DNA from: an uncultured Nitrosopumilales archaeon
GTDB lineage: Archaea > Thermoproteota > Nitrososphaeria > Nitrososphaerales > Gagatemarchaeaceae
DNA length: 59,120 bases
Direction of reading: 5' to 3'
Assembly (NCBI GenBank): GCA_964533695.1
Contig: CAZHNH010000112.1
Span: 1-59,120, forward strand
A program made the position numbers and the translations under genes. The notes below the pieces were generated by a model. That model ran no database searches and was not told where the DNA came from. It saw only the letters and a list, made by a program, of their open reading frames with translations. This document shows, one piece after another, positions 3,134 to 59,120 of the stretch. The stretch's first letter is position 1. The number at the start of each line of letters is the position of its first letter.

Positions 3134-3151
3134 TCTGCCGGGTTCGGTGGG

Positions 3152-38855: not shown

Positions 38856-41594
38856 TTGAAGCGCTCTCAAGTTCTGGCGGTCTCGGTCTTAATGTTAATG
38901 CTTCTTGCCGCGTTGCCGCTCTTGCAGGGGTCCACTGCGACAACAAGCTACTCTGAGAGCCTCAACGTGTACATCGCCGGCTCGAATGCGTACTGGTATT
39001 TCACCTTCAGCGGAGTGAATGGTTCCAGCAAGCTGTCCGCTTTCGAAAGCTCGCCAGGTCTGAGCTGGTACAACGTGACGGCGATCATGACTACGGGTTG
39101 GAAGTCTGACTTTCAGGTCTTCGGGCCGTTAGGATACAACTTGCTTCCAGTTCCCTTCATCCCATCTCAAGGGCTTTTTCTCACCTTGGGATCGGATTCC
39201 TATCCTGACGCCCTCGCAGCGGCGGGACGATTAAACTCGTACTTGCTTTCCACATTTGTCTCCTATTCGAACGATTCGGGCTACTACGAGTTCTATAGCC
39301 CTCTTACCTTCACCGAAGTCATTCCGGTGACCCTGTTGAAGTTGATTCCTTCCACGATGGGAGGTTTCGCGGCCGCTGTCACGTCGAGCGGGCTGGACCA
39401 GACATCGTCGCCACTAGTAATGCTCGAAGGGACAAAAGGGGCGTCGGGATTCTCGCACAGCTTAGTCGTCGGATCAATCTCAAGTGAGGCACTCAACTCC
39501 AATAGCAAACCGAACATTCTCTCGTACTTCGGGTCGACTGTCACCTCACTAAAGGCGGCTAACGACAGTGTCTCTTCGACTGTCAAAATCCACGCCCTCG
39601 ACGGCATAATGAGTTTGACCTCAAAGGACAACGCCACCCTGGTCAACGTAACATCGCATTACTCCAGCGTCTATTCGCTGTCGCTGGCGCCGCAGGCGAA
39701 ACTGTTTCAAGTGAACGCGACGGTGCTTCAGCAACCGCAACAACTTCTCGCGGAACGGCAAGTCGATGTCGGCGTTCTTCAACCTGGCGAGAACATGACG
39801 GTGACGATTACCCTCACTGACGTCTCGAGCGTGACCTCACTCGAGAGCATCGCATACTCAGACAACTGGTGGAATCCTGCTCTCTTCAAGCTTGTCGGTG
39901 GGACAGGTTCAGTATTCTCTCAGGCACTATTGAACGCCAGCGGAACGGCGACGCCCTACTACAAACTAGAATACATTGGGAATATCACAAGCAGGATAAC
40001 CATCCCTCCAGTAGCGGTTAGCTTCGCGTACCTCGTAGGAGGTTCCACCTTCAAAGGCCAGGCGTGGCTAAACCCAATCACGATTTCGCTCGGCGAGGAC
40101 AACCCGGTAGTGCTCGCGTATGCTGCACCGGCGGTGAACTTTTCTCAACCTCTTGGCGCGACCCAGACCCTGCACTTGTTCGTGAAGAACGTCGGGACTC
40201 GAACAGCAACTGATGTGGTGGTAGACGGCGCAACCATCCCTGGAGGAGCGCTCACTGCCGACGGGGGTTCTTACACGGCCACGATCCCGATTGTCGCAAC
40301 TGGACTCCTCAACACAAACGTGACCAGCTCGTACTTCGTGACGTACGAAAATCCGCAAGGGGAAACCTTCAACGCGACGACGAATCGCCTGTCACTCATT
40401 TTTGCCCATTCAGGGATGCTGTTGGGATACCCAGAGGTCGTCGTCGGTGCGATCATCAAACCTCTAAGACAAGGCAGCACCGCGACCAACCTAACCTTAA
40501 CATTTACTGTCACGAATGCAGGCAACTCGAGCCTCCTGGACTTCGTCTCAAAAGGTCAGATTCCATCCGGCCTTGGGTGTGGCGTCACAAATGGCACTGG
40601 CATCTCTTGTCCCTCTGGAACAGATCTCCTCAAGCTGAATTACACGGTGTTGGCGTCAAGAAGTACGCATGAGACAACGATGAAATTCAATGTGACAAGT
40701 CCTGAGAATTTCTTCATATCACCATTGACATTTGGCGGGGTGTCAGCCGGAATCAGTCTCATGGGAAGCTCAAATGCGATTGCCGTCCCCACGGGTCTGG
40801 TCTTGACCAAGGCCTTCAGTCCTTCGCTGCTCTTCGCAGGGGTTACGTCTTCGGTCAAGCTGTTGGCCGATAACGCGGGGCCATTCACAATCTATAACGT
40901 CACGGTGAGCTCCACCGTGGACTCGTTCGACAAACTCTCTCCTCTCGCGATACCTACAATTTCGAACAGTTCAATCATAGCGAAGGGGAATCTCACCAGG
41001 TCATATCCCGTGAATGCGACGACGAGCTACGGCAATCACACGTCCTCCGAGGTGTCATCCACATTGTACTTCGGAGGGACTCAGTATTCGATCGAAAGTC
41101 TCGGCCCATACGTTGCTGTGTATGAGCCTCTAAACGCAACCGTCACTACCACGCCTTTGACCCCAACCGAGGGCAAAGATTTCAAGTTTTACCTCACGAT
41201 CAGCAACCCAGCAAGTGTCAACGTCACTAGCGTTGTCCTCACACTCCCGATCCCGTCAGGTCTCACCCTTTCCCAGATGAACAACAATGCATCCGTGTCG
41301 CACGGGGTTCTTATGGTAAACATACGGTCGCTTCTCTCCCACTCTTCCTTCAAAGTGACAGCGGAAGGCATTGCCAGCAACGGGGCAACCTACTCTTGGA
41401 AAGGCGCCAGCCTGACTTTCGTCTACGGAGACACCACTATCAAGGGATTCGTCCCGGGGAAGGGAATAGTGGTCAATGAAGACGTGACAACCAGGTACCT
41501 GATTCCTTTGGCGGTAGCTGTAATTGTCCTGCTGGCCGCAGCGTTTTACGTGAGGCGACTTGCGGCTCCTAGCGTTCCAGCTTCCCCGAAGTGA
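38856..41594 (+). CDS. large secreted/cell-surface glycoprotein candidate (S-layer-like) with C-terminal TM anchor
   Basis: 912 aa. N-terminal signal-like segment (VLAVSVLMLMLLAALPLLQG), more than 20 N-x-S/T sequons by eye, Ser/Thr/Val-rich and apparently beta-rich composition, and a C-terminal helix (LIPLAVAVIVLLAAAFYV) followed by a basic tail. Confidence 0.65.
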   Translation: MKRSQVLAVSVLMLMLLAALPLLQGSTATTSYSESLNVYIAGSNAYWYFTFSGVNGSSKLSAFESSPGLSWYNVTAIMTTGWKSDFQVFGPLGYNLLPVPFIPSQGLFLTLGSDSYPDALAAAGRLNSYLLSTFVSYSNDSGYYEFYSPLTFTEVIPVTLLKLIPSTMGGFAAAVTSSGLDQTSSPLVMLEGTKGASGFSHSLVVGSISSEALNSNSKPNILSYFGSTVTSLKAANDSVSSTVKIHALDGIMSLTSKDNATLVNVTSHYSSVYSLSLAPQAKLFQVNATVLQQPQQLLAERQVDVGVLQPGENMTVTITLTDVSSVTSLESIAYSDNWWNPALFKLVGGTGSVFSQALLNASGTATPYYKLEYIGNITSRITIPPVAVSFAYLVGGSTFKGQAWLNPITISLGEDNPVVLAYAAPAVNFSQPLGATQTLHLFVKNVGTRTATDVVVDGATIPGGALTADGGSYTATIPIVATGLLNTNVTSSYFVTYENPQGETFNATTNRLSLIFAHSGMLLGYPEVVVGAIIKPLRQGSTATNLTLTFTVTNAGNSSLLDFVSKGQIPSGLGCGVTNGTGISCPSGTDLLKLNYTVLASRSTHETTMKFNVTSPENFFISPLTFGGVSAGISLMGSSNAIAVPTGLVLTKAFSPSLLFAGVTSSVKLLADNAGPFTIYNVTVSSTVDSFDKLSPLAIPTISNSSIIAKGNLTRSYPVNATTSYGNHTSSEVSSTLYFGGTQYSIESLGPYVAVYEPLNATVTTTPLTPTEGKDFKFYLTISNPASVNVTSVVLTLPIPSGLTLSQMNNNASVSHGVLMVNIRSLLSHSSFKVTAEGIASNGATYSWKGASLTFVYGDTTIKGFVPGKGIVVNEDVTTRYLIPLAVAVIVLLAAAFYVRRLAAPSVPASPK

Positions 41595-45201: not shown

Positions 45202-45984
45202 CTACTTCCCGTGCCGCCTGGTCCGTCTTTGATACGTCCTTATCGCCCTCATCAGGTCAATCTTGCGGAAGGCAGGCCAAAAAACGTCCATGAAGACGAG
45301 TTCAGAATAGGCGCCCTGCCACAGTAGGAACCCGCTCATCCTCTCCTCGCCCGATGTGCGGATGATTAGCTCTGGCTCTTGGTTTGGGAGATATGATGTG
45401 TAAAGTCTCCCGCCAATCGTATCTTCTGTGATTTCCTCGGGTGAGAGCCGACCGGCCTTGACATCTTGGGCTACCGCCTTCACCATGTCCGTTATCTCTG
45501 CTCTGCCTCCATAAGCCACTGCTATGTTCAGATAGTGATCCTCGTAGGCCGACGTCTTTACTTCTATGGCCGAAAGAAGGTCGCGGACTGATTGCGGAAG
45601 AAGGTCAAGCTTGCCGATGGCTCTTACCTTGACTTTGTATTTAACAATCCTCTGGTCGGAAAGCAGGCTCGCTAGCCGATGCTCGATCAGAGCAAAGAGT
45701 TCCAGGAGTTCTTCGACGTTTCTCTCGAGATTCTCCGTGGAGAGTACATAAAGTGTTACGGTTCTTATCCCAAGCTCGTGGCACCAGTCTAACAGTTCCT
45801 CGGCCCGGTTCGCGCCCTCTTCATGTCCTATGCCGTTGGCGAGGCCTTGGCTGGCTGCCCACCTTCTGTTTCCATCTAGGATGATGCCTACATGAGATGG
45901 GACCGGTTCGGCCTGGACTTGTGCGCTTAGCCTCCCTTCGTAGAGTCTGTAGGCTCCTACGACTCGCAGGATTGAGTCTAGCAT
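45202..45984 (-). CDS. uppS: cis-prenyltransferase (undecaprenyl/di-trans,poly-cis-polyprenyl diphosphate synthase)
   Basis: HVGIILDGNRRWA, LYVLSTENLER and RTSGEERMSGFLLWQ motifs. Confidence 0.9.
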   Translation of the reverse strand: MLDSILRVVGAYRLYEGRLSAQVQAEPVPSHVGIILDGNRRWAASQGLANGIGHEEGANRAEELLDWCHELGIRTVTLYVLSTENLERNVEELLELFALIEHRLASLLSDQRIVKYKVKVRAIGKLDLLPQSVRDLLSAIEVKTSAYEDHYLNIAVAYGGRAEITDMVKAVAQDVKAGRLSPEEITEDTIGGRLYTSYLPNQEPELIIRTSGEERMSGFLLWQGAYSELVFMDVFWPAFRKIDLMRAIRTYQRRTRRHGK

Positions 45985-47238: not shown

Positions 47239-48426
47239 CTATTGTCCACGGCGCCGAACAATCATTGTCACAGCGTTTCCTCCGCCGAGGCACGCGGTTG
47301 CCAAGCCAGTCCGCTTCCCCGTCCTTGCCAAGCCGTAAAGAAGAGTAGTCAGGATTCTTGCGCCGCTGCACCCGAGAGGGTGTCCGAGAGCAATCGCTCC
47401 TCCGCTTATGTTGAACCTCCCTTCTGGGATCGCAAGCTCTCTCCTGACGGCGATTGACGCAGTCGAGTATGCTTCGTTATGTTCGAAGAGATCGATATCG
47501 CCCATGGTCATCCCTGACCTCTTCAACACGGACCTTGTTGTGGGGATTGGTGCCTCCATGACTCTGCCGGGTTCCACTCCACCGGTTCCATATGCAATGA
47601 TTTCCGCAAGGGGGATGACGCCCAATTCGCGTGCAGCCTCCTCCGACGCGACGACTACAGCAGCCGCTCCATCGCTCAGCTGAGATGAGTTCCCGGCCGT
47701 ACAGATGCCACCCTTCTTGAAGGCGGGTCTCAGCTTAGACAACTTTTCAATCGTCGTGTCGGGTCTCACACACTCATCCCTGTCGAAAACGACGGTTGCC
47801 TCGCCTTCTCTCTGGACACTGACTTTGACAATTTCATCCCTAAAGGCACCCGTATCGATCGCCTTCGCTGCCTTCATTTGGCTCTGGCAGGCGAATTCGT
47901 CGGCCTCAGACCTCGTAATTCCGTATCTCTTGGCAATGTTCTCGCCCGTCACACCCATGTGACAATTGTGATATGCGTCCCACAGACCGTCGAGAATCAT
48001 CGCGTCGAGAACTCGCGCATCACCAAGTCTGACTCCCCACCGCTCGCCTCTGAGAATGTGAGGAGAATTGCTCATATTCTCCATCCCGCCGGCGACGACG
48101 ACATCACAATCTCCGGCCTTGACTGCCTGAGCTGCCAGCATTACGGCTTTCAGCCCCGAACCACAGACCTTGTTGACCGTCACCGCCCCCACTCTGAAGG
48201 GGAGCCCGGCTGCGATTGAAGCCTGTCTTGCGGGGTTCTGGCCGAGACCTGCAGAGATGACATTCCCCATTATGACCTCGTCGACTTTCGACGGGGCTAG
48301 ATTCGCCCTCCTCAGTGCTTCTTTGACTACGACGGAACCGAGCTCTGGGGCGCTTACACCCACGAGGCTCCTTCCAAACTTACCTGTAGCTGTTCTGCAG
48401 GCGGAAACGACTACCGGCTTCCCCAT
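47239..48426 (-). CDS. acetyl-CoA C-acetyltransferase (canonical thiolase II)
   Basis: All catalytic signatures are present: VNKVCGSGLKAV (nucleophile Cys), NEAYS, ALGHPLGCSG (His) and ATACLGGGNAV (second Cys). I use the ATG at 48426; the longer ORF would overlap the ilvE start. Confidence 0.9.
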   Translation of the reverse strand: MGKPVVVSACRTATGKFGRSLVGVSAPELGSVVVKEALRRANLAPSKVDEVIMGNVISAGLGQNPARQASIAAGLPFRVGAVTVNKVCGSGLKAVMLAAQAVKAGDCDVVVAGGMENMSNSPHILRGERWGVRLGDARVLDAMILDGLWDAYHNCHMGVTGENIAKRYGITRSEADEFACQSQMKAAKAIDTGAFRDEIVKVSVQREGEATVVFDRDECVRPDTTIEKLSKLRPAFKKGGICTAGNSSQLSDGAAAVVVASEEAARELGVIPLAEIIAYGTGGVEPGRVMEAPIPTTRSVLKRSGMTMGDIDLFEHNEAYSTASIAVRRELAIPEGRFNISGGAIALGHPLGCSGARILTTLLYGLARTGKRTGLATACLGGGNAVTMIVRRRGQ

Positions 48427-48520: not shown

Positions 48521-49438
48521 ATGAAGGCTCTCAAGAAAATATGGATGGATGGCAAGTTCGTCGACTGGAACGATGCGAAGATTCACGTCCTAACACACGG
48601 CCTTCACTATGGTTATGCTGTCTTTGAAGGCATGCGGTGTTTCGCTACCCCGGATGGGCCAGCAATCTTCAGGTTGGATGAACATGTCGAACGATTTCTC
48701 AACAGTGCGAAGATTTACCGTATGGACATGGGGTTCTCTGCGAAGGAGCTGAACGAGGCCTGCGTCGATTTGGTCCGCGAGAACCGCATTCCGGAGTCCT
48801 ACATCCGTCCCATCGCCTTCAGCGCGTACGGCGAAATGGGATTGAATCCGATGAACAACGAGATCTCCGTAGCCATCGCATCTTGGGAGTGGGGCCCATA
48901 TCTCGGAAAGGAGGGCGCCGACCAGGGGGTCCGCGCAGTCGTCTCAAGTTGGGCAAGGATCGACTCAAGGGCACTCCCTGTCCAGGCAAAGTGCGCTGCT
49001 AACTACGCCAACTCCGCACTGGCGAAGATGGAGGCCATCTCTTCAGGCTACGATGAGGCTATAATTCTGAACACACACGGCATGGTTGCGGAGGGCCCCG
49101 GTGAAAACATCTTCCGTCTGAAGGATGAGGTGCTCAGTACACCGCCTGCCAGCTCTGGAATCCTCAGAGGAATCACCAGGGACACGGTCATACGGTTCGC
49201 ACGCGACACTCGCGTGAAGTTCTACAGAAACGACTCGACAAGGGAGGAGCTCTATACTTCGGACGAGCTCTTTTTCAGCGGGACCGCCGCCGGCATAGCC
49301 AAGGTCAGGGAGGTCGATGGCAGGAAGATTGGGAATGGCGTTTACCCAATAACGGACAGGCTAAGGAAGCTGTATGACCAGGTTGTCCACGGCAAGGTCA
49401 AGCGCTATTCGAAGTGGCTTACGACGGTGAAGGCCTGA
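48521..49438 (+). CDS. ilvE: branched-chain amino acid aminotransferase
   Basis: 305 aa, fold-type IV. Motifs HGLHYGYAVFEGMR, EGPGENIF and GITR. Confidence 0.9.
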   Translation: MKALKKIWMDGKFVDWNDAKIHVLTHGLHYGYAVFEGMRCFATPDGPAIFRLDEHVERFLNSAKIYRMDMGFSAKELNEACVDLVRENRIPESYIRPIAFSAYGEMGLNPMNNEISVAIASWEWGPYLGKEGADQGVRAVVSSWARIDSRALPVQAKCAANYANSALAKMEAISSGYDEAIILNTHGMVAEGPGENIFRLKDEVLSTPPASSGILRGITRDTVIRFARDTRVKFYRNDSTREELYTSDELFFSGTAAGIAKVREVDGRKIGNGVYPITDRLRKLYDQVVHGKVKRYSKWLTTVKA

Positions 49439-49439
49439 A

Positions 49440-49907
49440 TCACGCCTTCACGAATCCCTCTACATCGAGCAGCGTACCCTTCCGTTTCCCTTGTGGCTTG
49501 AACACTGGGAGCACCTTTGTGCCGATCTTGAGGCCGGGCACGGACGCGGTGTGTATGATGCCACCGGTGACACCCTTGAAGGCGACGAAGAGAAATGTCT
49601 TTGGCTTCGCAAGTCGCTCCCCGCCAAAGCCTACGCTGCTATGCGCGACCGCTGCGACCACTCCTTCCGGGCCTACTTCCCTGTATCTGTTGATTTCGAG
49701 GTAGCAGTCGACGCAGTACACCTTGGGCGGGACATATCTCTTCCCGCACTTTGAACACTCTGCGGCGAGTATCTTCCCTGCCTGAAGGCCTCGCAGGAAG
49801 CGCTCTCCGGCCAGCCCCGCAGTGTATTCGTAGTGGAATGGAATCTGGTCTTTCCATGACCTGAGCCCTTCGATGCTCGTAATCCTTTCCTTTAGTGGCA
49901 AGCTCAT
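49440..49907 (-). CDS. DUF35 OB-fold/Zn-ribbon protein
   Basis: 155 aa with FLRGLQAGKILAAECSKCGKRYVPPKVYCVDC, followed by an OB-fold segment. Confidence 0.85.
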   Translation of the reverse strand: MSLPLKERITSIEGLRSWKDQIPFHYEYTAGLAGERFLRGLQAGKILAAECSKCGKRYVPPKVYCVDCYLEINRYREVGPEGVVAAVAHSSVGFGGERLAKPKTFLFVAFKGVTGGIIHTASVPGLKIGTKVLPVFKPQGKRKGTLLDVEGFVKA

Positions 49908-50419
49908 CTCCTCGGTCTGAAGTACCTTATGTCCGTGATTGCTCCCTCCCGCTTCGCCTTCGGCTTCCAGACCGCTTCTACCTTCATCCCGATTTGAACC
50001 TTCCGTGGTTCGATTTGGTCAAGCAGGTGAAGAATGCCCATCCCCTGTGAGGCGCCGTCGATATCAACGACAGCGACGATTATCGGCCTTTTCCGCCTGC
50101 TTGCGTCATTGTTGACATAGCTGACGGAGAAGGTGTTCACGACACCCGTGTCCTTTACCCTGACCCATTCATCCGTCGGAACGAAGTCCTCCTCGCAGTA
50201 CGCGCGGGGTGGGATAAGAATGCGACGGCACTTCGCGCACTTCAGTCCCCAGATCTCTCCCTCCCTGAGGCCGTCCAGGAATCTGCTTATTGCGACGCCA
50301 GATGTCCACGAGTACCGCAGCACCGTCTCGTATCGCATGACTAGGAAGCGTTCCGCTTCTATGTCGCTCAGGCTCAGCTCGGTCCCCGGATATGCCCGTA
50401 TCTTGGAACTCAATCTCAC
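49904..50419 (-). CDS. DUF35 OB-fold protein with degenerate Zn ribbon
   Basis: FLDGLREGEIWGLKCAKCRRILIPPRAYCEEDF; the second CxxC is reduced to a single Cys. I chose the GTG at 50419 because the longer ORF (to 50527) overlaps the ligase 3' end. An ATG at 50338 is also possible. Confidence 0.75.
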   Translation of the reverse strand: MRLSSKIRAYPGTELSLSDIEAERFLVMRYETVLRYSWTSGVAISRFLDGLREGEIWGLKCAKCRRILIPPRAYCEEDFVPTDEWVRVKDTGVVNTFSVSYVNNDASRRKRPIIVAVVDIDGASQGMGILHLLDQIEPRKVQIGMKVEAVWKPKAKREGAITDIRYFRPRR

Positions 50420-50444
50420 TTCAGCGCTCTGGGAGGACCTGATT

Positions 50445-52424
50445 TCAAACTTTCCTAACGACCCCCATCCGCCTCGCGAGCTCCACGTAGTACTCAAGGG
50501 CCGCAGGATCGGCGAGCGCGCCAGCACTCACAGCCTTCGTCGGGTCGGCACCCATGAATATCTTCTTGACAGGGACTTCAAGCTTCTTTCCGTTAAGGGT
50601 CCGTGGGACTGACGGTACTTCGATTATTTCGTCGGGGACGTACCTTGGCGATATGTCCGCCTTCACTTTCGCCCTTATCTTCGAGACCAGGGCTTGATCA
50701 AGTTCTCGCCCCAGCGAGGGGACTACAAACAGCAGCAGCCTAGGCTGTCCGTCAGGTGTCTCGACGTCTACCGCCACGCAGTCAGATACTTCAGGCATTG
50801 ACTCGACTGCGCGGTAGATCTCGCTGGTTCCGATTCTCACGCCCATCCTCTTTATTGTGGCATCAGACCGGCCGTAGATTATGCAGCTCCCTCTTCCAGT
50901 CAGTTCAATCCAGTCGCCGTGGCGCCACACTCCGGGAAAGACCTCGAAGTAACTCTCGCGATATCGGCTCCCGTCGGAGTCGCCCCACAGATACAAAGGC
51001 ATGCTCGGCATGGGCCTCGTGATAACTAGCTCGCCGACCTCGCCGGTGACAGGCTTCCCCGCTTCGTTGAACGCGTGAACCGCCGCACCTAGGCATCTGC
51101 ACTGAATCTCTCCGGCGTAGACAGGTAAGGTTGGGGATCCACCGACGAATGCCGTGCATACGTCTGTCCCACCGCTTATCGAGGCGAGCCAAAGGTCTTC
51201 CTTTACACCCGCGTAGACCCACCTTGACGCTTCAGGGGAGAGCGGAGACCCCGTGGACCCCACGCCCTTGAGCTTCTCCAGTCTGTGCGTGCTGCGAGGC
51301 TGGATTCCTGACTTCATGCACGCGCCGAGATGGGCAGCGCTCGTGCCCAAGAAGGTCACGCCATTCTTCTCTGCGAGGCTCCACAATGAATTGTGGTCAG
51401 GGTACGTTGGGTTCCCGTCGTAGAGAACGACCGTCGTCCCGAGCATCAGCGCGGAAACGAGGTAGTTCCACATCATCCAGCCGGTAGTAGTGAACCAGAA
51501 GAATCTGTCACCTGACCCGAGATCGTTGTGGAGAGAAAGGACCTTCAGGTGTTCGAGGAGGATTCCTCCATGCCCGTGCACAATCGGCTTGGGGAGCCCG
51601 GTAGTGCCAGAAGAGTACAGAATCCAGAGTGGATGCCCGAACGGAACCCTTACGAACTCCAGCTTCTCCTTTCCCCGTGTGATCTCTTCCCATTCGACTG
51701 TCCTCCCGACGCCCTCTGGCCTAGCGGATCCTGAAGTCAGAACCGTCGCCTCGAGAGATGGCAGGGCGGATACGACGTCCTTCACGGTGTCTCTCTTGTC
51801 GAACTCCTTCCCGCCGTATCTGTAGCCCGTTGAGGCAACCAGAACCTTCGGGCGAATTTGCTTGAACCTGTCTTTAACGCTCGGTGCCCCAAAGTCAGGC
51901 GAGCAGCCCGACCAGATTGCACCGACACTTGCAGCGGCCAGCATCGAGACAACGCTTTCAGGGACGTTAAGGATGTAACCAGCGACCCTGTCTCCCTTAC
52001 TTACGCCCAGACGTTCGAATGCGGCGGCAGCCGAGGCCACTTGTCGCCTCAGCTCCGTCCAGCTGATCTCCCTAGTCTCTCCGGACTCGTCGGCATGGAT
52101 TATGGCGGGACCAGAGGAGCCGTTCGGTCTGAGTGCGTGTTCCGCGTAGTTCAGCGCTGTTCCATCGAACCAAGTTGCCCCGGGCATTCTTGTGTCAGAG
52201 ATCGCACTCGTATAATCTCCACTCGACACCACCTTCCCGTTTTCCCACACGGCCCTCCAGAAAGGGTCAAGGCTGTCAACCGACCATCTCCACACCGCTT
52301 CGTAATCGGCTCGAGCGTGAGGCTTACCCGGGAAATGTGTGTCTATGAACTTCGTTATGTTCGAGTCCTTTATCCGGCGCGCATTAGGCTCCCATAGCGG
52401 TGAAGGATGCCCCAGAGAGGACAT
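50445..52424 (-). CDS. acetoacetyl-CoA synthetase-like acyl-CoA ligase (AMP-forming)
   Basis: 659 aa. The N-terminus PLWEPNARRIKDSNITKFID...YEAVWRWSVDSLDPFW is typical of acetoacetate-CoA ligases. AMP-binding motifs YSSGTTGLPK and GRSDATIK are present. Confidence 0.9.
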   Translation of the reverse strand: MSSLGHPSPLWEPNARRIKDSNITKFIDTHFPGKPHARADYEAVWRWSVDSLDPFWRAVWENGKVVSSGDYTSAISDTRMPGATWFDGTALNYAEHALRPNGSSGPAIIHADESGETREISWTELRRQVASAAAAFERLGVSKGDRVAGYILNVPESVVSMLAAASVGAIWSGCSPDFGAPSVKDRFKQIRPKVLVASTGYRYGGKEFDKRDTVKDVVSALPSLEATVLTSGSARPEGVGRTVEWEEITRGKEKLEFVRVPFGHPLWILYSSGTTGLPKPIVHGHGGILLEHLKVLSLHNDLGSGDRFFWFTTTGWMMWNYLVSALMLGTTVVLYDGNPTYPDHNSLWSLAEKNGVTFLGTSAAHLGACMKSGIQPRSTHRLEKLKGVGSTGSPLSPEASRWVYAGVKEDLWLASISGGTDVCTAFVGGSPTLPVYAGEIQCRCLGAAVHAFNEAGKPVTGEVGELVITRPMPSMPLYLWGDSDGSRYRESYFEVFPGVWRHGDWIELTGRGSCIIYGRSDATIKRMGVRIGTSEIYRAVESMPEVSDCVAVDVETPDGQPRLLLFVVPSLGRELDQALVSKIRAKVKADISPRYVPDEIIEVPSVPRTLNGKKLEVPVKKIFMGADPTKAVSAGALADPAALEYYVELARRMGVVRKV

Positions 52425-52431
52425 GAGCCTT

Positions 52432-53589
52432 CTACCTTCTCATTGTTATTACTGTCCCGACTTGTAGGAGGTCTCCCCATGCCTGCGCAAGTCCCCTGTT
52501 GACGTCCTTCTTCACTTGCCTCTTGCCGGCCTCCCCTCGCAACTGCCAGAACAACTCACAGGCTTTCATCGTACCCGCTGCGGCGATAGGGTTCCCTACG
52601 CCGAGGAGGCCTCCTGACGGGTTGATTGGAAGGTCGCCGTCGCGCTGGGTGACGCCCTCACGGGTTAGCTTGGGGGCCTCCCCCTTGTCCGCGAGGAGGA
52701 CGCCCTCCATATGATGGAGTTCCTTGTAGTCGAATGGGTCGTAGACCTCCGCGAAGTCAATTTGCTTCTTCGGATTGTCTATCTTTGCCATCCGATACGC
52801 CATGCGAGCGGCGGCCTCGACGTACCTAGGATAGTAGAGGTCTCGGTTGGTCCAATACTGTGTATCGACGTTCCAACCCACGCCGTCTATCCAGACCGGG
52901 TCGTCGGTATACTTCTTGACCACGTCTTCAGACACAAGCATCAGTGCGGCCGCTCCGTCCGAAGTGGGTGAAACATCTAGTCGTTTCACGGGAAGGCAAA
53001 TCGGTTCGCTTTTCATCACGTCCTCCACCGTGATCCTGGCAGGCAGCTGCGCGCATGGGTGGTCCATCGCATTTCCCTTGTTCTTGACAGACACAAGAGC
53101 GATGTCCTCCTCTTTCACGTTATGGACCGCCATGTATCGTCTCATCTCAAGGGAGAAGATCCAGAGTAGGGTCACACCTAACGGCCTCTCCAGTGTATGG
53201 TCGAATATGCTCCAGAAAGCGTACTGAGGATGCGGATGAAGCGGGGACATCTTTTCTTCGGCCACTACGAGGCATGTGTCGAAGAGTCCTGAGGCCACGT
53301 GCCACCAGCCCGCAACCGGTACGAACACCCCCGTCCCTCCTCCGACGTACACCCGGCTGTACGGTCTGTTGGTCCCTCCAGCGCCGTCCATGAGGTACTC
53401 CCCCTTCATGTGGATCCCGTCAAAAGCGTCAGGAGCTGTTCCCAAGACCACAGATTCGACGTCCTTGATTTCCATCTTCGCAGAGTCGAGTGCCATTCTA
53501 CTTGCCTCGAAGGCCAGCTCCCTCCCTGTCTCCAGCATCCTGCGTCTGAACTTCGTCATCCCGGCGCCGACTACAGCAACTCTCTTCAT
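52432..53589 (-). CDS. thiolase-fold (SCP2-thiolase-like) protein lacking the canonical Cys and His
   Basis: 385 aa with KRVAVVGAGMTKF at the N-terminus. Gly occupies the nucleophile position (RVYVGGGTGVF where thiolases have A-C-x-S-G). Asn occupies the His position (NPSGGLLGVGNPIAAAG). Confidence 0.85.
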   Translation of the reverse strand: MKRVAVVGAGMTKFRRRMLETGRELAFEASRMALDSAKMEIKDVESVVLGTAPDAFDGIHMKGEYLMDGAGGTNRPYSRVYVGGGTGVFVPVAGWWHVASGLFDTCLVVAEEKMSPLHPHPQYAFWSIFDHTLERPLGVTLLWIFSLEMRRYMAVHNVKEEDIALVSVKNKGNAMDHPCAQLPARITVEDVMKSEPICLPVKRLDVSPTSDGAAALMLVSEDVVKKYTDDPVWIDGVGWNVDTQYWTNRDLYYPRYVEAAARMAYRMAKIDNPKKQIDFAEVYDPFDYKELHHMEGVLLADKGEAPKLTREGVTQRDGDLPINPSGGLLGVGNPIAAAGTMKACELFWQLRGEAGKRQVKKDVNRGLAQAWGDLLQVGTVITMRR

Positions 53590-53593
53590 GATC

Positions 53594-54727
53594 TCAACTC
53601 CCGAAAGACATGGCGATTACAGCTCCCGTCGCTGTCGGGTTTCCTCTCCACGACATCGCTAGGGTCCTGTCCACCTTGTTTACTTGATTGCTCCCCGCCT
53701 CCCCCCTCATCTGGAGAACGCACTCCAACACCTTGTGTGAGCCGTTCGCCTCGATTAGATACCCTGTTCCCAGGGAGCCTCCACTTGGGTTGAGCCTGTG
53801 ATCCTTTCCACTGAGCATCTCTAGCGCGCGCCTCTTATCTACGCCGATTGAAATCAGGTGTTGAAGAAGCTTGAATGAATAGGTATCGTCGATCTCAAGC
53901 ACATCGAATCCTTCCGTGTCCTTGATCTTTCCCTGTTTCATCGCGGATTCGAAGGAGTCTCTCGCGTACCTTGCCTCTAGCACATCCCCTCCCTCATACC
54001 ACGGAGTGGACGAGCGCCACGCCAGCCCGTCTACGAACACCGCCTCCCTACCGTTTCTCTTGATCCAGTGTTCGCTTGCCAGCACGAGGACTACCCCACA
54101 TTCGGCGTAGTCGGGCCTGTCAAACTTTCTCAGCGGGTCGACGATGGGTTCTGCCTCACCGATCTCTGACAGGCTCATTGTACCTCCATAGCTCGCTCTT
54201 GGGTTTCGAATCGCCTTCGTCTTCTCCCTCTTGACCACTAAACTCACATCGTCCCGGCTCAAGCCCGCTCCGTCCATGAACGCGCTCATTTCGAGTCCAG
54301 CCAGAACGTCCGCGTTTGCCCCGGCAACTCTGTGAAACTGGGGGTCGAGCGCGAGGTTTTCTACCTGTGTCTTCTCCAGGACATCGGCAACCTTGCTATG
54401 TGCCTCAACCGAGACCACATCCGCAACCCCAGACTTGATATGCATGATCGCGTGTCCGAGTCCAATTATCCCGTCGGCAGGGACCGTGCAAAGAGGCCTG
54501 CGTGCCCCTCCTACCTGATCGGGAACCATTTCATCCGTTATGCTCCATCCCTCCCAGAGGTCTTCAGTGCAGCAGATGAACGAACCGACGTCCTTCCTTG
54601 GATCCAGATTTGCGTCGGCATACGCCTTAGATGCCGCTTGGTACATCATTTCCCTGGTGCTGAGGTCCGTTACTGCGGGGCGGAATCCTTCGTATCCGAC
54701 CCCAATGATTCCGACGCGATCTGTCAC
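53594..54727 (-). CDS. second thiolase-fold protein lacking the canonical Cys and His
   Basis: 377 aa with RVGIIGVGYEGF at the N-terminus. The nucleophile position reads TVPADGIIG. The His position reads NPSGGSLGTGYLIEANG, with Tyr in place of His. Confidence 0.8.
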   Translation of the reverse strand: MTDRVGIIGVGYEGFRPAVTDLSTREMMYQAASKAYADANLDPRKDVGSFICCTEDLWEGWSITDEMVPDQVGGARRPLCTVPADGIIGLGHAIMHIKSGVADVVSVEAHSKVADVLEKTQVENLALDPQFHRVAGANADVLAGLEMSAFMDGAGLSRDDVSLVVKREKTKAIRNPRASYGGTMSLSEIGEAEPIVDPLRKFDRPDYAECGVVLVLASEHWIKRNGREAVFVDGLAWRSSTPWYEGGDVLEARYARDSFESAMKQGKIKDTEGFDVLEIDDTYSFKLLQHLISIGVDKRRALEMLSGKDHRLNPSGGSLGTGYLIEANGSHKVLECVLQMRGEAGSNQVNKVDRTLAMSWRGNPTATGAVIAMSFGS

Positions 54728-54767: not shown

Positions 54768-55343
54768 CTACCGTATAGGGCGAATTATGAAAATGGCGAC
54801 GTCCCAAAGGAAGTGACTTGTTACGCTGGCCGAGAGGTCCTTGCCATAGTAGCACGTCAGCCCCCACACTGAATCAGCAACGAAGGTTGTCGCTACCCAG
54901 AGTAGGTTCCCGGTTACAAGATGCAAGCCGGCATCCACGAGGGCGACAAGTGGGGCCGACGACGCCCCGAGCCTTGGCTGCAGCCTGCTCTGCAGCGTGC
55001 CCCTGAAGTATGACTCGTATCCAACTGCATCGAATGCGAGGACACTGACCTGCAATGCAAGGGGGTTGGATGGTGCTGAAATCAGTGCGTAAATCGATGC
55101 GCCCGTCGGTCCAGATGCGCCCGGAAAACCGAATCGAACGATCGCCAAGTTCCCACAGTAGAAGATGAGATACAGCACAACGGCCGACAGGACCCCCGCC
55201 ACAAGTGCGCGAGTTCCAGGCTTCGGCCAGGAAGCACCGCCTGTGAGCAGTGCAGCCATGACCATGACTCCTGTGGAGCCGAATGTCGCAGCGACGAAGA
55301 GTCGGGAAGGGACAACGAAGAGGACAACCATTGATAGGGCCAC
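54768..55343 (-). CDS. CPBP-family intramembrane protease (CAAX/Abi-like)
   Basis: 191 aa, polytopic. GYESYFRGTLQSR (an ExxxR-type variant of motif 1) and SHFLWDVAI (His motif). Confidence 0.7.
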   Translation of the reverse strand: MALSMVVLFVVPSRLFVAATFGSTGVMVMAALLTGGASWPKPGTRALVAGVLSAVVLYLIFYCGNLAIVRFGFPGASGPTGASIYALISAPSNPLALQVSVLAFDAVGYESYFRGTLQSRLQPRLGASSAPLVALVDAGLHLVTGNLLWVATTFVADSVWGLTCYYGKDLSASVTSHFLWDVAIFIIRPIR

Positions 55344-55623
55344 AGCGGCAAATCCAGGAATGACCCCGACTCGCCGTCTCAGTTCGTTCTACCAGCCCAA
55401 CATGGTCCGTTGGTAACTGCCGGACTTGCGATGGCTTCTGATGTGCCCACGAGTTCCAGTCTTTGCTTCTTCCTTGAGGCGCTCGGTGCCTTTTCTTGTC
55501 TTTGCCGCGCGAATACCGAGAGCGGATGACGATGCGATCGCAGGCTTCGGCACTCGCCGAGGCAGGCCGCGTGACTGGGAGAAGTGGGTTCTCTTGTTCC
55601 GTGGTCGTTCATGCCAGTTCGCC

Positions 55624-56610
55624 TTACTTGGCTGCCAGCGAATTCATGGCATAGCCCACATTGCCAATCGGCATCAGTATCGGAAGGGTGACTCCTGCCT
55701 TCCTATACTCCTCGACCCTGTCTAAGGCATGATCGGCGCTCCCCGCAAGAGTGAGCGCTTCGATGGCTTCTTCTGGCACCAGGCGCCCTGCCTGAGGAAT
55801 GTCTCCTTTCTTCCAAGCTTCTTTCATCGGGGACAGTTTCTCCTCCGTCACCCCGTATTCTCGGAGCGTTTCAGAGTGTACGACTTCGGCGAGCTGGTAG
55901 AGAAAGAAGTAGAACCCTCTAACAGCCTGTACTGCGTTTTCACGGCTTGGATCCACAGAGGTCATCATGTACGACGCTCTCTCAACTGACCGCCCGCTCC
56001 TTGCCTCTCCTTTCGCCACATTCCTGACCATCCTGGCGGTCACTCCTGCTGTGCTCAACGCAGGCGAGAGGATGATCCCATCAGCCACAGCCGCCGCGTG
56101 TGCCTGTGTCTTCGGCGACAACGAGGCTATAAATATCGGAATCTCGGTCGAGGGCTTGAAACCGAGGGACAGGTTGTGTACCTTGAAGAATTCTCCATCG
56201 AAGTCGACTTTATCGCCCTTCCACAACGACCTCACTATCTTCACATACTCCGCGATTCTTACGAGAGGTCTTGTCCGTTCTACGGGGAAGATTTCATATC
56301 CTATCAATGGGATAGTGGGGAAACTTCCCAGACCCACTCCTAGCACTACCCTCCCTTGAGAAAGTTCGGCCAGAGTCGCGAAGGTGGCAGCGGCAGCGAC
56401 AGGGTGCCTCGTGAAAGTGTTAATCACCCCAGAGCCTATTCTGATTCTGCTCGTTGCCCCGATCATTGTCGCGATGCAGGTGACCACGTCACGCTGGTAG
56501 AGGCTTTCGTGCATCCAAATGGAATCATACCCGAGCTTCTCTGCCTCTGAAGCCACTCTTGTTGACTCCCCTGCGCTCATGACAGGGTTGAAGCCTAGTG
56601 CAAGCTTCAC
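55624..56610 (-). CDS. LLM-class flavin/F420-dependent oxidoreductase
   Basis: 328 aa with luciferase-like TIM-barrel signatures (YDSIWMHESLYQRD, RVVLGVGLG). Confidence 0.85.
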   Translation of the reverse strand: MKLALGFNPVMSAGESTRVASEAEKLGYDSIWMHESLYQRDVVTCIATMIGATSRIRIGSGVINTFTRHPVAAAATFATLAELSQGRVVLGVGLGSFPTIPLIGYEIFPVERTRPLVRIAEYVKIVRSLWKGDKVDFDGEFFKVHNLSLGFKPSTEIPIFIASLSPKTQAHAAAVADGIILSPALSTAGVTARMVRNVAKGEARSGRSVERASYMMTSVDPSRENAVQAVRGFYFFLYQLAEVVHSETLREYGVTEEKLSPMKEAWKKGDIPQAGRLVPEEAIEALTLAGSADHALDRVEEYRKAGVTLPILMPIGNVGYAMNSLAAK

Positions 56611-56653
56611 ACTTTGGCTCCTTTTCAGTTTCGTAATAAGCCTTTGAGATGCA

Positions 56654-58048
56654 TCATCGTACTCTGAGGGAACCGATAAGTCCGGTCAAGTCGTCGGCCT
56701 TCTCCAGCTCCCAGAGACGGAAAAGCACCTCAGCAGCTCTCTTCTTGCCGAGTTTTCTGCTCGTCAGACCAAGGAATTTTGACTCGATCTCTCGTTTGTT
56801 CATCGGGTTTCCCGGATGCCCCTTTGGCAGTATAGACTCGGTGGACACCTTCTCCCCGCCGATGAGCGTGACTGATATCCGATTCGGCATCCCTCTTGAC
56901 GGGTAGAGGGAGGTGAACTTGCCGTCTTCCACAACTCGCACCTTCCTAACGAGTCGGAGAGTAGGGGGGTCGTTAAGACTCTTCGAAGTGTATGATGCGT
57001 TGTCGATTTTCCCCTTCGCCAGGACTGCCCCTACGATATACGGGAGGCTATGATCGGCCGTTTCCTTGGTGGAAGGTCTCCACTTCTCTTTGTCTTTGCC
57101 AAGGATTGAATATCCCGCCTCGTGAGTCTGAACGAGAATCGAACTGATCCTTCCAAAATCTCTTACCCTCTTCCTGAGCTCGATGGCGGCCCAAACGGCA
57201 GTCTGCGCGTGATATTCCACTGGCCAATACTTCATGCAAGTCTCGCTCAACTTGAAGCCTCGCGACCTTCCGCGGCCGCTTCCGTCCTCCTTTTTACCGC
57301 CGAACCCTTCGACGTCCAGTTCGAAGGGACCCGAAACCTGTCTGAAGAATCCCATTTCGCCTTCAAAGATTGGAGAGGGACCTTTCATCCCTTGTCTAGC
57401 GAGGAGGGCTGAGAAGACGGCGTTCCTTGCTGCGTTGGAGAACGAGGCACCTTTCCACATCGTGAGGCTCCCTGCTCTCACCTGCCGCATCGCGATGTGA
57501 CTGTTGAGAGCTATGTTGACCGCTTCGGCCAGCTCACTCCGGCTCAGCCCAAGGAGCTTTCCGGCTGCGAGGGCGCTGGAAACGAGGCCGTAACAGACGT
57601 GATCCCAGCCTCTGTGCCTTATGTCCGCGGCGTCGCAGAGCCTGCACTGAATCTCATATGCGATGACAGTCGATAGTATTAGCTTCCGCCCATTTACGCC
57701 AACGCTCTCCGCGACTGACAGAGTGGCGCCTATGTTGTCACTTGGATGGGCAGGCTCTTTTGAGAGATAGGTGTCATTAAAGTCGAAGTACCTTATCATC
57801 AAGCCGTTTACGAAAGTCGCCAAATCCGGTGTCGTCCTATCTCTCGTGCCGAGGACGGTGGACGGCCCGTCATGAACGGTAGACGTCGCCACTCTACGAG
57901 CTATCCTTACAGGTGCCTCGTCGAATGCGCCTATGGCACAGCCGAGGGCGTCGACGATCCTCTTCTTGGCTTCCGACACGACTTCAGCGCCAATGTCAGA
58001 ATACGAGATACGGTAGGTATAGTCGGCGAGCCGCTCGGCGAGATTCAA
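56654..58048 (-). CDS. MmgE/PrpD family protein (2-methylcitrate dehydratase-like)
   Basis: 464 aa with a TTG start. The N-terminus LAERLADYTYRISYSDIGAEVVSEAKKRIVDALGCAIGA is typical of PrpD. Confidence 0.9.
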   Translation of the reverse strand: MNLAERLADYTYRISYSDIGAEVVSEAKKRIVDALGCAIGAFDEAPVRIARRVATSTVHDGPSTVLGTRDRTTPDLATFVNGLMIRYFDFNDTYLSKEPAHPSDNIGATLSVAESVGVNGRKLILSTVIAYEIQCRLCDAADIRHRGWDHVCYGLVSSALAAGKLLGLSRSELAEAVNIALNSHIAMRQVRAGSLTMWKGASFSNAARNAVFSALLARQGMKGPSPIFEGEMGFFRQVSGPFELDVEGFGGKKEDGSGRGRSRGFKLSETCMKYWPVEYHAQTAVWAAIELRKRVRDFGRISSILVQTHEAGYSILGKDKEKWRPSTKETADHSLPYIVGAVLAKGKIDNASYTSKSLNDPPTLRLVRKVRVVEDGKFTSLYPSRGMPNRISVTLIGGEKVSTESILPKGHPGNPMNKREIESKFLGLTSRKLGKKRAAEVLFRLWELEKADDLTGLIGSLRVR

Positions 58049-58139: not shown

Positions 58140-59120
58140 TTGCCTCTGTTCAGCGCCGAGCACAAGACCTTACTGAAGACATTCCATCCTGCAGTTCACG
58201 AAGAGTATGCCGAGATACTGAACTCACTGGCTGGGTTCATGGAGAAAGAGCTGATGCCCCTCTCATCGAAGTTCGATGCAGGGCTGGAGCCCATCGGCCC
58301 ATCCAGAAAGAGATTGCTGGAGAACGGTATCTCCCAGATTCCGTTTCCGACGACCTATGGCGGTCTGGGCCTCCCGTTCTCGGTGTACGCGAGCGCCATA
58401 GAGCTGCTTGGAACAGCCGATGCTTCCACCGCACTCAGCGTGGAGATACACAACGCCGTAGCCGAAGGCATCTTCAGATTCGGGAGCGAAGAGCAGAAGT
58501 CCAACCTTATCCCTCATCTGGTTACCGGGAAGAGGCTCGCTTCTTTCGCCCTTACCGAACCCGGGTCTGGTTCAGACGCAAGGACCGTCAGGACGACAGC
58601 CAAGCCCATGAAAGATGGCTATGTACTGAACGGCACTAAGACTTTCATAACGAACGCGGGAGAAGCAGACCTCTACATGGTGTTCGCCCGGAGCGAAAAG
58701 GGTCCCTCTTGCTTCTTGGTGGATTCTCCAAGTCCGGGCCTAAAGTTCGGGACACCGATGTCGAAACTGGGGATGAGGGGTTCTCGCACTTGCGAAGTCA
58801 CGTTCGAGAACTGTCATGTCCCAGGCAGGAACCTCGTCGGCGTCGAAGGGGAGGGAATCGACTATGCGACGCAGATTCTCCACGCGGCGCGCATAATTGT
58901 CGCGGCCCTTAACGTCGGCATATCCAGACTTGCCTACAACAAGGCGCTGGACTATGCTAAGCAGAGAACCGCCTTCGGAAGACCCATATCTGAATTCCAG
59001 CTCACACGAGAGAAAATTGCAGACATGAAGACAGGAATCAACGCTGGCCGACTCCTGTACTACTACGCGTCTCACCTGAAGGAGGAGGGTCTGGACTATT
59101 CATCGGAGGCTGCGCAGGCG
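58140..59120 (+). CDS. acyl-CoA dehydrogenase, 3' end runs off the window
   Basis: Not in the supplied ORF track because it has no stop in the window. Reading from the TTG at 58140 gives PLFSAEHKTLLKTF...FALTEPGSGSDA...GTKTFITNAGEADLYMVFA...GMRGSRTCEVTFENCHVP...QRTAFGRPISEFQ, a classic ACAD pattern. The listed ORF 58112-58639 is a different frame. Confidence 0.9.
   Translation, partial: MPLFSAEHKTLLKTFHPAVHEEYAEILNSLAGFMEKELMPLSSKFDAGLEPIGPSRKRLLENGISQIPFPTTYGGLGLPFSVYASAIELLGTADASTALSVEIHNAVAEGIFRFGSEEQKSNLIPHLVTGKRLASFALTEPGSGSDARTVRTTAKPMKDGYVLNGTKTFITNAGEADLYMVFARSEKGPSCFLVDSPSPGLKFGTPMSKLGMRGSRTCEVTFENCHVPGRNLVGVEGEGIDYATQILHAARIIVAALNVGISRLAYNKALDYAKQRTAFGRPISEFQLTREKIADMKTGINAGRLLYYYASHLKEEGLDYSSEAAQA

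Follow-up and report, generated by a model that had tools for sequence, protein, structure and literature searches.

What can an operon be for that encodes two proteins of the thiolase fold, both of which have lost the residues of thiolase catalysis? The question is raised by a cluster of five genes on contig CAZHNH010000112.1 (assembly GCA_964533695.1) of an uncultured Nitrosopumilales archaeon, a stretch of 59,120 nucleotides that we call the window. The genes are as follows.

53594-54727, minus strand: ThlA (thiolase-like A), GTG start, 377 amino acids
52432-53589, minus strand: ThlB (thiolase-like B), 385 amino acids
50445-52424, minus strand: AACS, predicted AMP-forming acetoacetate-CoA ligase, 659 amino acids, Pfam ACAS_N/AMP-binding/AMP-binding_C
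49904-50419, minus strand: DUF35a, Zn-ribbon and OB-fold protein, verified GTG start, 171 amino acids
49440-49907, minus strand: DUF35b, a second, more divergent Zn-ribbon/OB-fold protein, 155 amino acids

A first-pass annotation of the window had described these five co-directional genes, and all five open reading frames (ORFs) were found at the same coordinates; an independent gene caller gave identical gene models on three other contigs with an identical ThlB. The spacing of 4-7 nucleotides or overlaps that it had reported holds for three junctions (ThlA/ThlB 4 nucleotides, ThlB/AACS 7 nucleotides, DUF35a/DUF35b a 4-nucleotide overlap) but not for AACS/DUF35a, which are 25 nucleotides apart. 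Our answer, to which we give a probability of roughly 0.85, is that the locus encodes a non-thiolytic heteromeric complex with ThlB as its functional centre.

The loss of the thiolase residues was examined in pairwise phmmer (HMMER) alignments with solved archaeal and SCP2 thiolases. ThlB was compared with 7yvy (a Pyrococcus thiolase), 4yzo and 6esq (the thiolase of the M. thermolithotrophicus complex of thiolase, HMG-CoA synthase (HMGCS) and DUF35), and ThlA with 6esq; ThlB could be aligned end to end with 7yvy and 6esq. The nucleophile site AACASG lies opposite Gly84 of ThlB (VGGGTG) and opposite a gap of three residues in ThlA, between TVP and ADG. HDCF/HDAF is found opposite YDPF in ThlB and DDTY in ThlA, and GHP opposite GNP and GYL, respectively. 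As a positive control within one alignment, the true thiolases beside the cassette in two other genomes (survey loci L015 and L030) show Cys, HDCF and GHP, and the thiolase of the window (47239-48426), which is not of the SCP2 type, shows Cys and GHP with NEAY at the HDCF position. In a profile-profile alignment with hhalign, ThlA and ThlB match over their whole length as paralogues (probability 100%, 28% identity), and the gap reappears where the pairwise alignments had put it. The alignments thus confirm the first-pass observation that neither protein has the nucleophilic Cys or the catalytic His, and the HDCF motif is gone as well. The same annotation had named the Cys of LCTVPADG in ThlA as a residue that might prove to be the active-site Cys after all. 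In 6esq the counterpart of this Cys80 is the Cys of PCTRV, which is not catalytic, and among orthologues the position is occupied by C, F, H, Q, Y, N or L; Cys80 was rejected as a hidden nucleophile. Judged by these alignments, the ThlA/ThlB complex is not a thiolase, as the Cys/His(Cys)/His machinery has disappeared.

What has taken the place of the lost residues in ThlB is strictly maintained. ThlB (Pfam Thiolase_N and Thiolase_C_1) is a member of NCBIfam NF004721/PRK06065 with 677 bits (cut-off 455). Its identity is 65-96% over 80 species of archaea and bacteria, with a median of 70% to distant phyla, and 147 of its 385 residues are conserved at a level of at least 95%. The motif at the former Cys site, [YF]VGG[GA][TS]G, is invariant in 81 orthologues from both domains, and YDPF (Y283) and GNPI (N333) are present in 81/81 sequences. 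Because the substituted positions are invariant and the whole protein is so conserved, ThlB appears to hold a functional site; the replacement residues point to a working active site and not to a relic. ThlB is therefore the presumed catalytic subunit and ThlA its presumed non-thiolytic partner.

The two proteins had been regarded as equivalents, both catalytically 'decapitated', and this view has to be corrected: ThlB is extremely conserved, whereas ThlA evolves rapidly, with a median identity of 40% against 70% for ThlB outside the close relatives and 79% against 96% in one neighbouring genome. ThlA (Pfam Thiolase_C_1) reaches 380 bits with its best NCBIfam model, NF004722/PRK06066, which is under the cut-off of 516. 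Both PRK06065 and PRK06066 are named 'thiolase domain-containing protein' with no function attached. The AlphaFold2 model of ThlA shows the SCP2-thiolase fold with a predicted local distance difference test score (pLDDT) of 83 and a predicted template modelling score (pTM) of 0.88. Foldseek matched it to the archaeal thiolase 6et9_C with a TM-score of 0.87, the other top structural matches being benzoylsuccinyl-CoA thiolase, TbSLP, Sal, Ltp2 and PhlC. Among ThlA orthologues the positions equivalent to HDCF and GHP drift and the three-residue deletion at the Cys site is constant. Moreover, an acidic loop (residues 55-71; E55, D56, E59, G60, S62, I63, D65, E66, P69, D70 and Q71) is conserved as the motif [ST]xED[LF]xEG[WY]SIxDExxPDQ in bacteria and archaea and is modelled at low confidence (pLDDT <50). 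Actinobacterial partners that match ThlB better than ThlA are of the A type, since they share the deletion and the loop. Besides, Cys-less variants are numerous: of the 78 full-length representatives closest to ThlA, almost every one is without the Cys, and an Asgard locus (L061:14920-16077) carries an additional Cys-less thiolase-like gene with the same three-residue deletion, YDAF, and NP at the GHP position.

Homologue searches assign the window to a Nitrososphaerales (Thaumarchaeota) MAG. With the ThlB profile, about 186,000 GTDB species were scanned, each represented by a single genome. The cassette was found in more than 590 of them, and the best 80 of these loci were analysed. The order ThlA-ThlB-DUF35a-DUF35b is kept in 66/80 loci with all four genes at a coverage of at least 70%, and most of the remaining 14 are cut by contig ends. 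The archaeal loci come from Nitrososphaerales, Bathyarchaeia, Archaeoglobaceae/Geoglobus, Aeropyrum, other Thermoproteota, Thermoplasmatota and the Asgard lineages Prometh-, Hod-, Hermod- and Thorarchaeota. The cassette is not specific to archaea, as about 29 of the best 80 loci are bacterial (Chloroflexota, Actinomycetota, a deltaproteobacterium, WOR-3, Krumholzibacteriota, Spirochaetota and Bacillota). Outside the close relatives the median identity to the proteins of the window is 50% for DUF35a and 34% for DUF35b, in addition to the values given above. A representative protein of 731 amino acids (P0379) is a natural fusion of ThlB, DUF35a and DUF35b; its ThlB part is 58% identical and keeps FVGGGTG, YDPF and GNPIA. 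The cassette is an ancient, horizontally spread four-gene module. Since both the gene order and the fusion link the four proteins, they are very likely subunits of one complex, in agreement with the heteromeric assembly of thiolase-like and DUF35 proteins that the first-pass annotation had suggested.

Both DUF35 proteins combine the Zn ribbon (PF12172) with the OB fold (PF01796) known from this family. DUF35a matches zf-ChsH2 and OB_ChsH2_C in Pfam; DUF35b matches zf-ChsH2 only, and its OB part is seen through the alignment of residues 15-132 to SSO2064 (3irb). This structural-genomics target is the founding DUF35 structure and the best PDB match of both proteins (E 1.8e-16 for DUF35a, 1.9e-19 for DUF35b). 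It has only been proposed to bind acyl-CoA, and no function is attached to it. In the sampled loci DUF35b always comes after DUF35a in the cassette. A degenerate Zn ribbon had been noted at the outset, and this is correct for DUF35a of the window and its two closest relatives (L001, L003), where the fourth Cys is replaced by Asp (CxxC...CEED), but not as a general trait: the Cys4 ribbon is present in 73/77 DUF35a and 70/74 DUF35b orthologues, and DUF35b of the window has the full Cys4.

The fifth gene stands apart from this module. AACS scores 946 bits with NF002937 (cut-off 639) and 840 bits with TIGR01217 (cut-off 521), with residues 7-652 covered, and since it passes these curated models it is predicted to be an acetoacetate-CoA ligase. 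It is located between ThlB and DUF35a only in the window and in L001, L002, L003, L005 and L007, all close thaumarchaeal relatives, and is not inside the cassette in 75/80 loci. AACS is thus a lineage-specific insertion confined to a thaumarchaeal subclade, and the core unit consists of four genes. The five-gene functional unit envisaged in the first-pass annotation accordingly shrinks to four genes, and a dedicated ligase that activates the substrate is ruled out as the general logic by the same 75 loci. In the thaumarchaeal lineage AACS more plausibly re-activates acetoacetate as a product than activates a substrate.

The chemistry of the complex is best approached through its closest known relatives. 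According to PMC12329534, thiolase-fold aldolases have a catalytic Tyr in place of the His of HDCF (Ltp2 Y294DHF, Sal Y302DCY) and a second site 50 residues downstream of it (Ltp2 Tyr344, Sal Gln352), and TbSLP carries Y297DCF. In ThlB, Tyr283 of YDPF and Asn333 are likewise 50 residues apart, and the phmmer alignment of ThlB with the Ltp2 chain 6ok1_A ends at ThlB 333/chain 344. By transitivity through HDCF, together with this spacing, Tyr283 would stand at the position of the catalytic base of the retro-aldolases Ltp2 and Sal; such a YDxF/Y Tyr is present in ThlB only, ThlA having Asp there. Further similarities with Ltp2-ChsH2(DUF35) (6ok1) and Sal-Shy(DUF35) (9myr) are a Cys-less SCP2-thiolase fold and an obligatory DUF35 Zn-ribbon/OB partner, and both are structural neighbours of the ThlA model; in Sal, as in ThlB, the Tyr is accompanied by a side-chain amide. 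However, Ltp2 and Sal are homodimers on a DUF35 domain that is fused to a MaoC hydratase, whereas the cassette encodes no hydratase but two different thiolase-like subunits along with two DUF35 proteins that stand alone. The NCBIfam 'lipid-transfer protein' models give only 53-170 bits for the cassette proteins, against cut-offs of 419-469, and most hosts of the cassette, archaeal or bacterial, are anaerobic or uncultured and offer no steroid context. A pair of adjacent genes for non-thiolytic thiolase-fold proteins has its nearest precedent in Ltp3/Ltp4 of actinobacterial sterol catabolism, Cys-less thiolase-like proteins treated as aldol-lyases of the C24-branched side chain (Wilbrink et al. 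2012, as cited in PMC10832528 and PMC10398937); the likeness is one of description.

The aldolase-type Tyr of ThlB makes a C-C lyase like Ltp2 and Sal the most reasonable assumption for the chemistry, and the analogy with these enzymes and with the Ltp3/Ltp4 pair best supports a retro-aldol reaction. We tentatively propose a C-C bond-cleaving, retro-aldol-type lyase with enolate chemistry and rate the odds of this assignment as somewhat below even. Of the C-C cleaving or forming complex suggested in the first-pass annotation, the lyase is retained and the substrate-activating ligase is not. The core would be a pseudo-symmetric heterodimer of the SCP2-thiolase-fold paralogues ThlA and ThlB, a stoichiometry that we infer, and each of the two would probably carry a DUF35 protein of its own as a cap, on the model of the known thiolase/DUF35 assemblies. 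In ThlB, as the catalytic subunit, Tyr283 may act as general base, with Asn333 and a backbone amide as the oxyanion hole, and the C-C bond would be cleaved via an enolate without a covalent acyl-enzyme intermediate. As substrate we envisage a small 3-hydroxyacyl-CoA that ordinary beta-oxidation cannot oxidise, for instance one whose 3-hydroxy-3-methyl carbon is tertiary; with a 3-hydroxyl rendered tertiary by a beta-branch, retro-aldol cleavage would be needed.

Other thiolase/DUF35 complexes are related to the cassette in different respects. The archaeal ones include the closest solved sequence and structure relatives of ThlA and ThlB, their DUF35 protein caps a thiolase-fold dimer, and they share with the cassette a metabolism centred on acetoacetyl-CoA. 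They differ in that Cys, HDCF and GHP are kept, the thiolase is a homodimer with one kind of DUF35, and the partner is HMGCS or a reductase/dehydratase, whereas the cassette has neither HMGCS nor a competent thiolase. PhlACB and MucABC (5m3k, 9vbo) are encoded, like the cassette, in an operon of two thiolase-superfamily subunits and a DUF35 protein in which one subunit is silent. However, PhlA and MucA are HMGS-like, and PhlC and MucB keep the catalytic Cys; in the cassette, two SCP2-thiolase-type paralogues that both lack the Cys are joined by two DUF35 proteins. The combination of an HMGS-like with a Cys-bearing ACAT-like subunit, typical of PhlACB/MucABC and of the thiolase/HMGCS/DUF35 complex, is not found in ThlA/ThlB, for which Pfam gave no HMG_CoA_synt match. 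The statement that the arrangement is without precedent was nevertheless too strong in view of the active and inactive subunits with DUF35 in PhlACB/MucABC and of the Ltp3/Ltp4 pair as described in PMC10832528.

The genes around the cassette in other genomes hint at the pathway. A short-chain acyl-CoA dehydrogenase (ACAD) is the commonest neighbour (29/80 loci) and lies divergently upstream or directly downstream; its NCBIfam matches are to generic short-chain ACADs only, under the cut-offs. AMP-forming ligases (17 loci) and canonical thiolases (14 loci) also recur, as do electron transfer flavoprotein (ETF), Fe-S/CCG oxidoreductase, enoyl-CoA hydratase and 3-hydroxyacyl-CoA dehydrogenase (HADH). 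Many Bathyarchaeia have a genuine archaeal-type thiolase with Cys, HDCF and GHP, together with its own single DUF35 gene, in divergent orientation beside the cassette (L015:5097-6671, L030:11442-13023), and such a pair is found downstream of the cassette in some Nitrososphaerales. B12-dependent acyl-CoA mutase genes with MeaB adjoin the cassette in Bathyarchaeia (L015, L025, L028, L029), in several cases along with an adenosyltransferase gene after it; mutase genes enclose the cassette in a deltaproteobacterium (L039) and lie nearby in an Archaeoglobaceae locus (L044). The large subunits of these mutases (L039:4645-6324, L015:10299-11981) read RQF/RMF and AQK where methylmalonyl-CoA mutase (MCM) has RQY (Tyr89) and VRN (Arg207), a register confirmed by 5req, the entry of the MCM Y89F mutant. 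They also lack the Ile/Asp of 2-hydroxyisobutyryl-CoA mutase (HCM), although HCM is their best PDB match with 605 bits versus 557 for MCM. Phe and Gln at these positions are the signature of isobutyryl-CoA mutase (ICM), so the mutases are probably ICM-like and predicted to act on branched acyl-CoAs without an additional carboxyl group, as the loss of Tyr89 and Arg207 suggests; a search for literature on this active-site variant found none.

The immediate surroundings of the operon in the window are of a similar character.

47239-48426, minus strand: canonical acetyl-CoA C-acetyltransferase, Thiolase_N 323 bits, Thiolase_C 133 bits, Cys/His intact
48521-49438, plus strand: class IV (branched-chain) aminotransferase (BCAT), Pfam Aminotran_4 157 bits
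54768-55343, minus strand: Rce1/CAAX-like membrane protein (Pfam), co-directional and upstream of the cassette
55624-56610, minus strand: luciferase-like oxidoreductase (Pfam), co-directional and upstream of the cassette
56654-58048, minus strand: PrpD/MmgE (Pfam), co-directional and upstream of the cassette
58140-59120, plus strand: short-chain ACAD, gene running past the end of the window

The acetyltransferase reaches 455 bits with TIGR01930 (cut-off 240). BCAT is convergent with DUF35b, its 3' end abutting the DUF35b stop, and occupies the equivalent position in L001, L002, L003 and L007. On longer contigs of the same organism (L081:629-5450) the ACAD of the window heads an operon ACAD-ETFbeta-ETFalpha-Fe-S/CCG oxidoreductase. 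The three upstream genes (54768-58048) are kept in L003, and PrpD also in L007; the other loci are without them. Taken together, the ACAD, the mutase signature and the class IV aminotransferase beside DUF35b in the window and its relatives place the cassette in the context of short or branched acyl-CoA catabolism. We tentatively assign the proposed lyase to branched short-chain acyl-CoA catabolism, where its substrate would be formed downstream of the neighbouring short-chain ACAD in the breakdown of branched-chain (amino) acids.

For the window itself, an HMG-CoA-lyase-like scheme is the simplest, because AACS is inserted in the operon and a canonical thiolase lies downstream. 3-Hydroxy-3-methylglutaryl-CoA (HMG-CoA) would be cleaved to acetyl-CoA and acetoacetate, AACS would convert acetoacetate to acetoacetyl-CoA, the adjacent thiolase would split this into two acetyl-CoA, and BCAT and ACAD would feed leucine carbon in. 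That HMG-CoA specifically is the substrate nevertheless seems doubtful to us. A bolder variant, which we consider quite improbable, would bypass the beta-branch: the ACAD would make a 3-methyl-2-enoyl-CoA, ThlA would hydrate it through its acidic loop (E55, D56, E59, D65, E66, D70), and ThlB (Tyr283/Asn333) would cleave the tertiary 3-hydroxy-3-methylacyl-CoA to acetyl-CoA and a ketone or keto-acid, the keto-acid being recaptured in the thaumarchaeon by the inserted AACS. If this were true, Bathyarchaeia, Asgard archaea, Chloroflexota and others would possess a carboxylation- and oxygen-independent degradation of leucine/isovalerate-type and isoprenoid-derived acids, and neither of the 'dead' thiolase folds would be dead: a single heterodimer would unite two active enzymes, each with a new chemistry of its own.

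Several observations weigh against the retro-aldol lyase or its details. ThlB has the second catalytic residue of neither characterised aldolase: Pro285 stands at the position of the essential Cys304 of Sal and of His296 of Ltp2, and Asn333 at that of Ltp2 Tyr344. The AlphaFold2 model of ThlB reached a pLDDT of only 38.6 with a shallow alignment of 25 sequences, the homologues all being at least 80% identical. The YDxF Tyr also occurs in TbSLP, which is bound to malonyl-CoA in PDB entry 5ab7 and whose function is called unclear, with a decarboxylation activity cited, in PMC12329534. As AACS lies outside the cassette in 75/80 loci, acetoacetate cannot be argued from synteny to be the general product, and apart from the ACAD the cassette has only unrelated housekeeping genes as neighbours in many bacteria. 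Among the co-directional neighbours in Spirochaetota, Anaerolineae and deltaproteobacterial loci, Pfam returned permeases, hydrolases, GTPases and DUF763, with no pathway clue besides ACAD, and tblastn of ThlB against 72,556 plasmids gave only paralogues of at most 37% identity and no orthologue on an annotated catabolic plasmid. The HMG-CoA scheme is the weakest part: most genomes have no AACS in the cassette, the cassette encodes no hydratase, and no carboxylase, hydratase (including MaoC) or HMG-CoA lyase was found in the 59-kb window, nor methylcrotonyl-CoA carboxylase, methylglutaconyl-CoA hydratase or other genes of the leucine pathway.

Two alternatives to the lyase deserve consideration. 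First, the Tyr/Asn oxyanion site of ThlB could decarboxylate a 2-carboxy-acyl-CoA such as malonyl-CoA, methylmalonyl-CoA or a related compound. Ketosynthases of the KS-Q/CLF type have decarboxylase activity, and the Asn at the position of the GHP His recalls the His/Asn pair of decarboxylating KAS III/CHS enzymes. TbSLP, a Cys-less SCP2-thiolase-like protein with YDCF for which PMC12329534 cites decarboxylation, was solved with malonyl-CoA and is a structural neighbour of the ThlA model, and the mutase/MeaB genes beside, around or near the cassette would fit a carboxylated acyl-CoA. However, the sequence match between TbSLP (5ab4) and ThlB is weak and partial (E 2.2e-06, with no stretch above threshold), and the mutases have lost Tyr89 and Arg207 of MCM, resemble HCM more closely and probably take no carboxylated substrate, which weakens the idea of a methylmalonyl-CoA decarboxylase to which they had given rise. 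Moreover, acyl-CoA carboxylase genes do not recur near the cassette among the analysed loci, and the insertion of AACS would be left without a rationale. We therefore regard a decarboxylase as unlikely.

Second, the assembly could be non-catalytic, either as a pseudo-enzyme scaffold of A, B and DUF35 subunits or as a module that binds or channels acyl-CoA; it would then arrange or regulate other enzymes such as the ACAD, hydratase, dehydrogenase and true thiolase. DUF35 proteins are documented scaffolds (bioRxiv 10.1101/2024.07.05.601840; PMC12960953) and organise the thiolase/HMGCS complex of archaea as well as, in S. acidocaldarius, the KT/ACR/HCD complex, and PhlA and the HMGS-like unit of Pseudomonas fluorescens are inactive thiolase-superfamily subunits needed for assembly (PMC12960953). 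The loss of all three canonical catalytic positions in ThlA and ThlB and the genuine thiolase/DUF35 pair beside the cassette in Bathyarchaeia are consistent with such a role. A scaffold would not be expected, however, to keep a ThlB of 65-96% identity across archaea and bacteria or to hold YDPF and GNPI invariant at the replaced catalytic positions, and the known systems retain at least one competent thiolase-fold subunit in the complex, whereas the cassette encodes none. Such a non-catalytic role is in our view a minor possibility.

An ordinary (acetoacetyl-CoA) thiolase with catalytic residues that were misaligned or sit at non-canonical positions would agree with the fold and with the name 'acetyl-CoA C-acetyltransferase' that Joint Genome Institute (JGI) pipelines give to homologues, but it is hardly tenable, since pairwise, profile-profile and control-bearing multiple alignments all agree on the absence of Cys, HDCF and GHP, ThlB has no conserved Cys near the site and none in its invariant set at the 95% level, Cys80 of ThlA is variable, and the curated NCBI equivalog model for ThlB is named without a thiolase activity.

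Thiolase-fold/DUF35 complexes and Cys-less thiolase-fold lyases are already known as kinds. What appears to be undescribed is the architecture of two paralogous Cys-less subunits with two DUF35 proteins, the Tyr/Pro/Asn site of ThlB, and the breadth and degree of its conservation; our searches of NCBIfam, the PDB and the full-text literature found neither a characterisation of nor a publication on the cassette, and a recent survey of HMGS/ACAT/DUF35 loci concerns Cys-bearing ACATs (PMC12960953). Thiolase-fold/DUF35 complexes form a versatile platform that serves mevalonate entry, archaeal fatty-acid synthesis, toluene and steroid catabolism and Friedel-Crafts acylation. In the characterised ones the thiolase-fold part is either an active subunit of a single kind or an aldolase homodimer, and the cassette departs from this scheme. 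Because public pipelines name its genes acetyl-CoA acetyltransferases, a name that the residues at the catalytic positions contradict, reconstructions of the metabolism of uncultured archaea probably count too many thiolases and overlook the step of this complex. Once identified, the reaction would close a gap in the short or branched acyl-CoA catabolism of archaea and bacteria that have not been cultured and in many cases are probably anaerobes, and the thiolase superfamily would gain a new active-site solution (Tyr/Asn/Pro).

The remaining genes of the window are housekeeping genes, among them tRNA synthetases, aIF2, RadA, mevalonate kinase, prenyl synthases and transketolase. Two ORFs have no Pfam match (10959-12584, 541 amino acids; 12828-13880, 350 amino acids), and a third (38856-41594, 912 amino acids) matches DUF11 only weakly. 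Isoprenoid genes are scattered over the window (1473-4189, 29520-30416, 45202-45984) and comprise a GHMP/mevalonate-kinase-like gene, a polyprenyl synthase, a UbiA prenyltransferase and a cis-prenyltransferase ORF. They show no linkage to the cassette in other genomes, and the counterpart of the cis-prenyltransferase ORF in L081 belongs to PF01255 (Prenyltransf).

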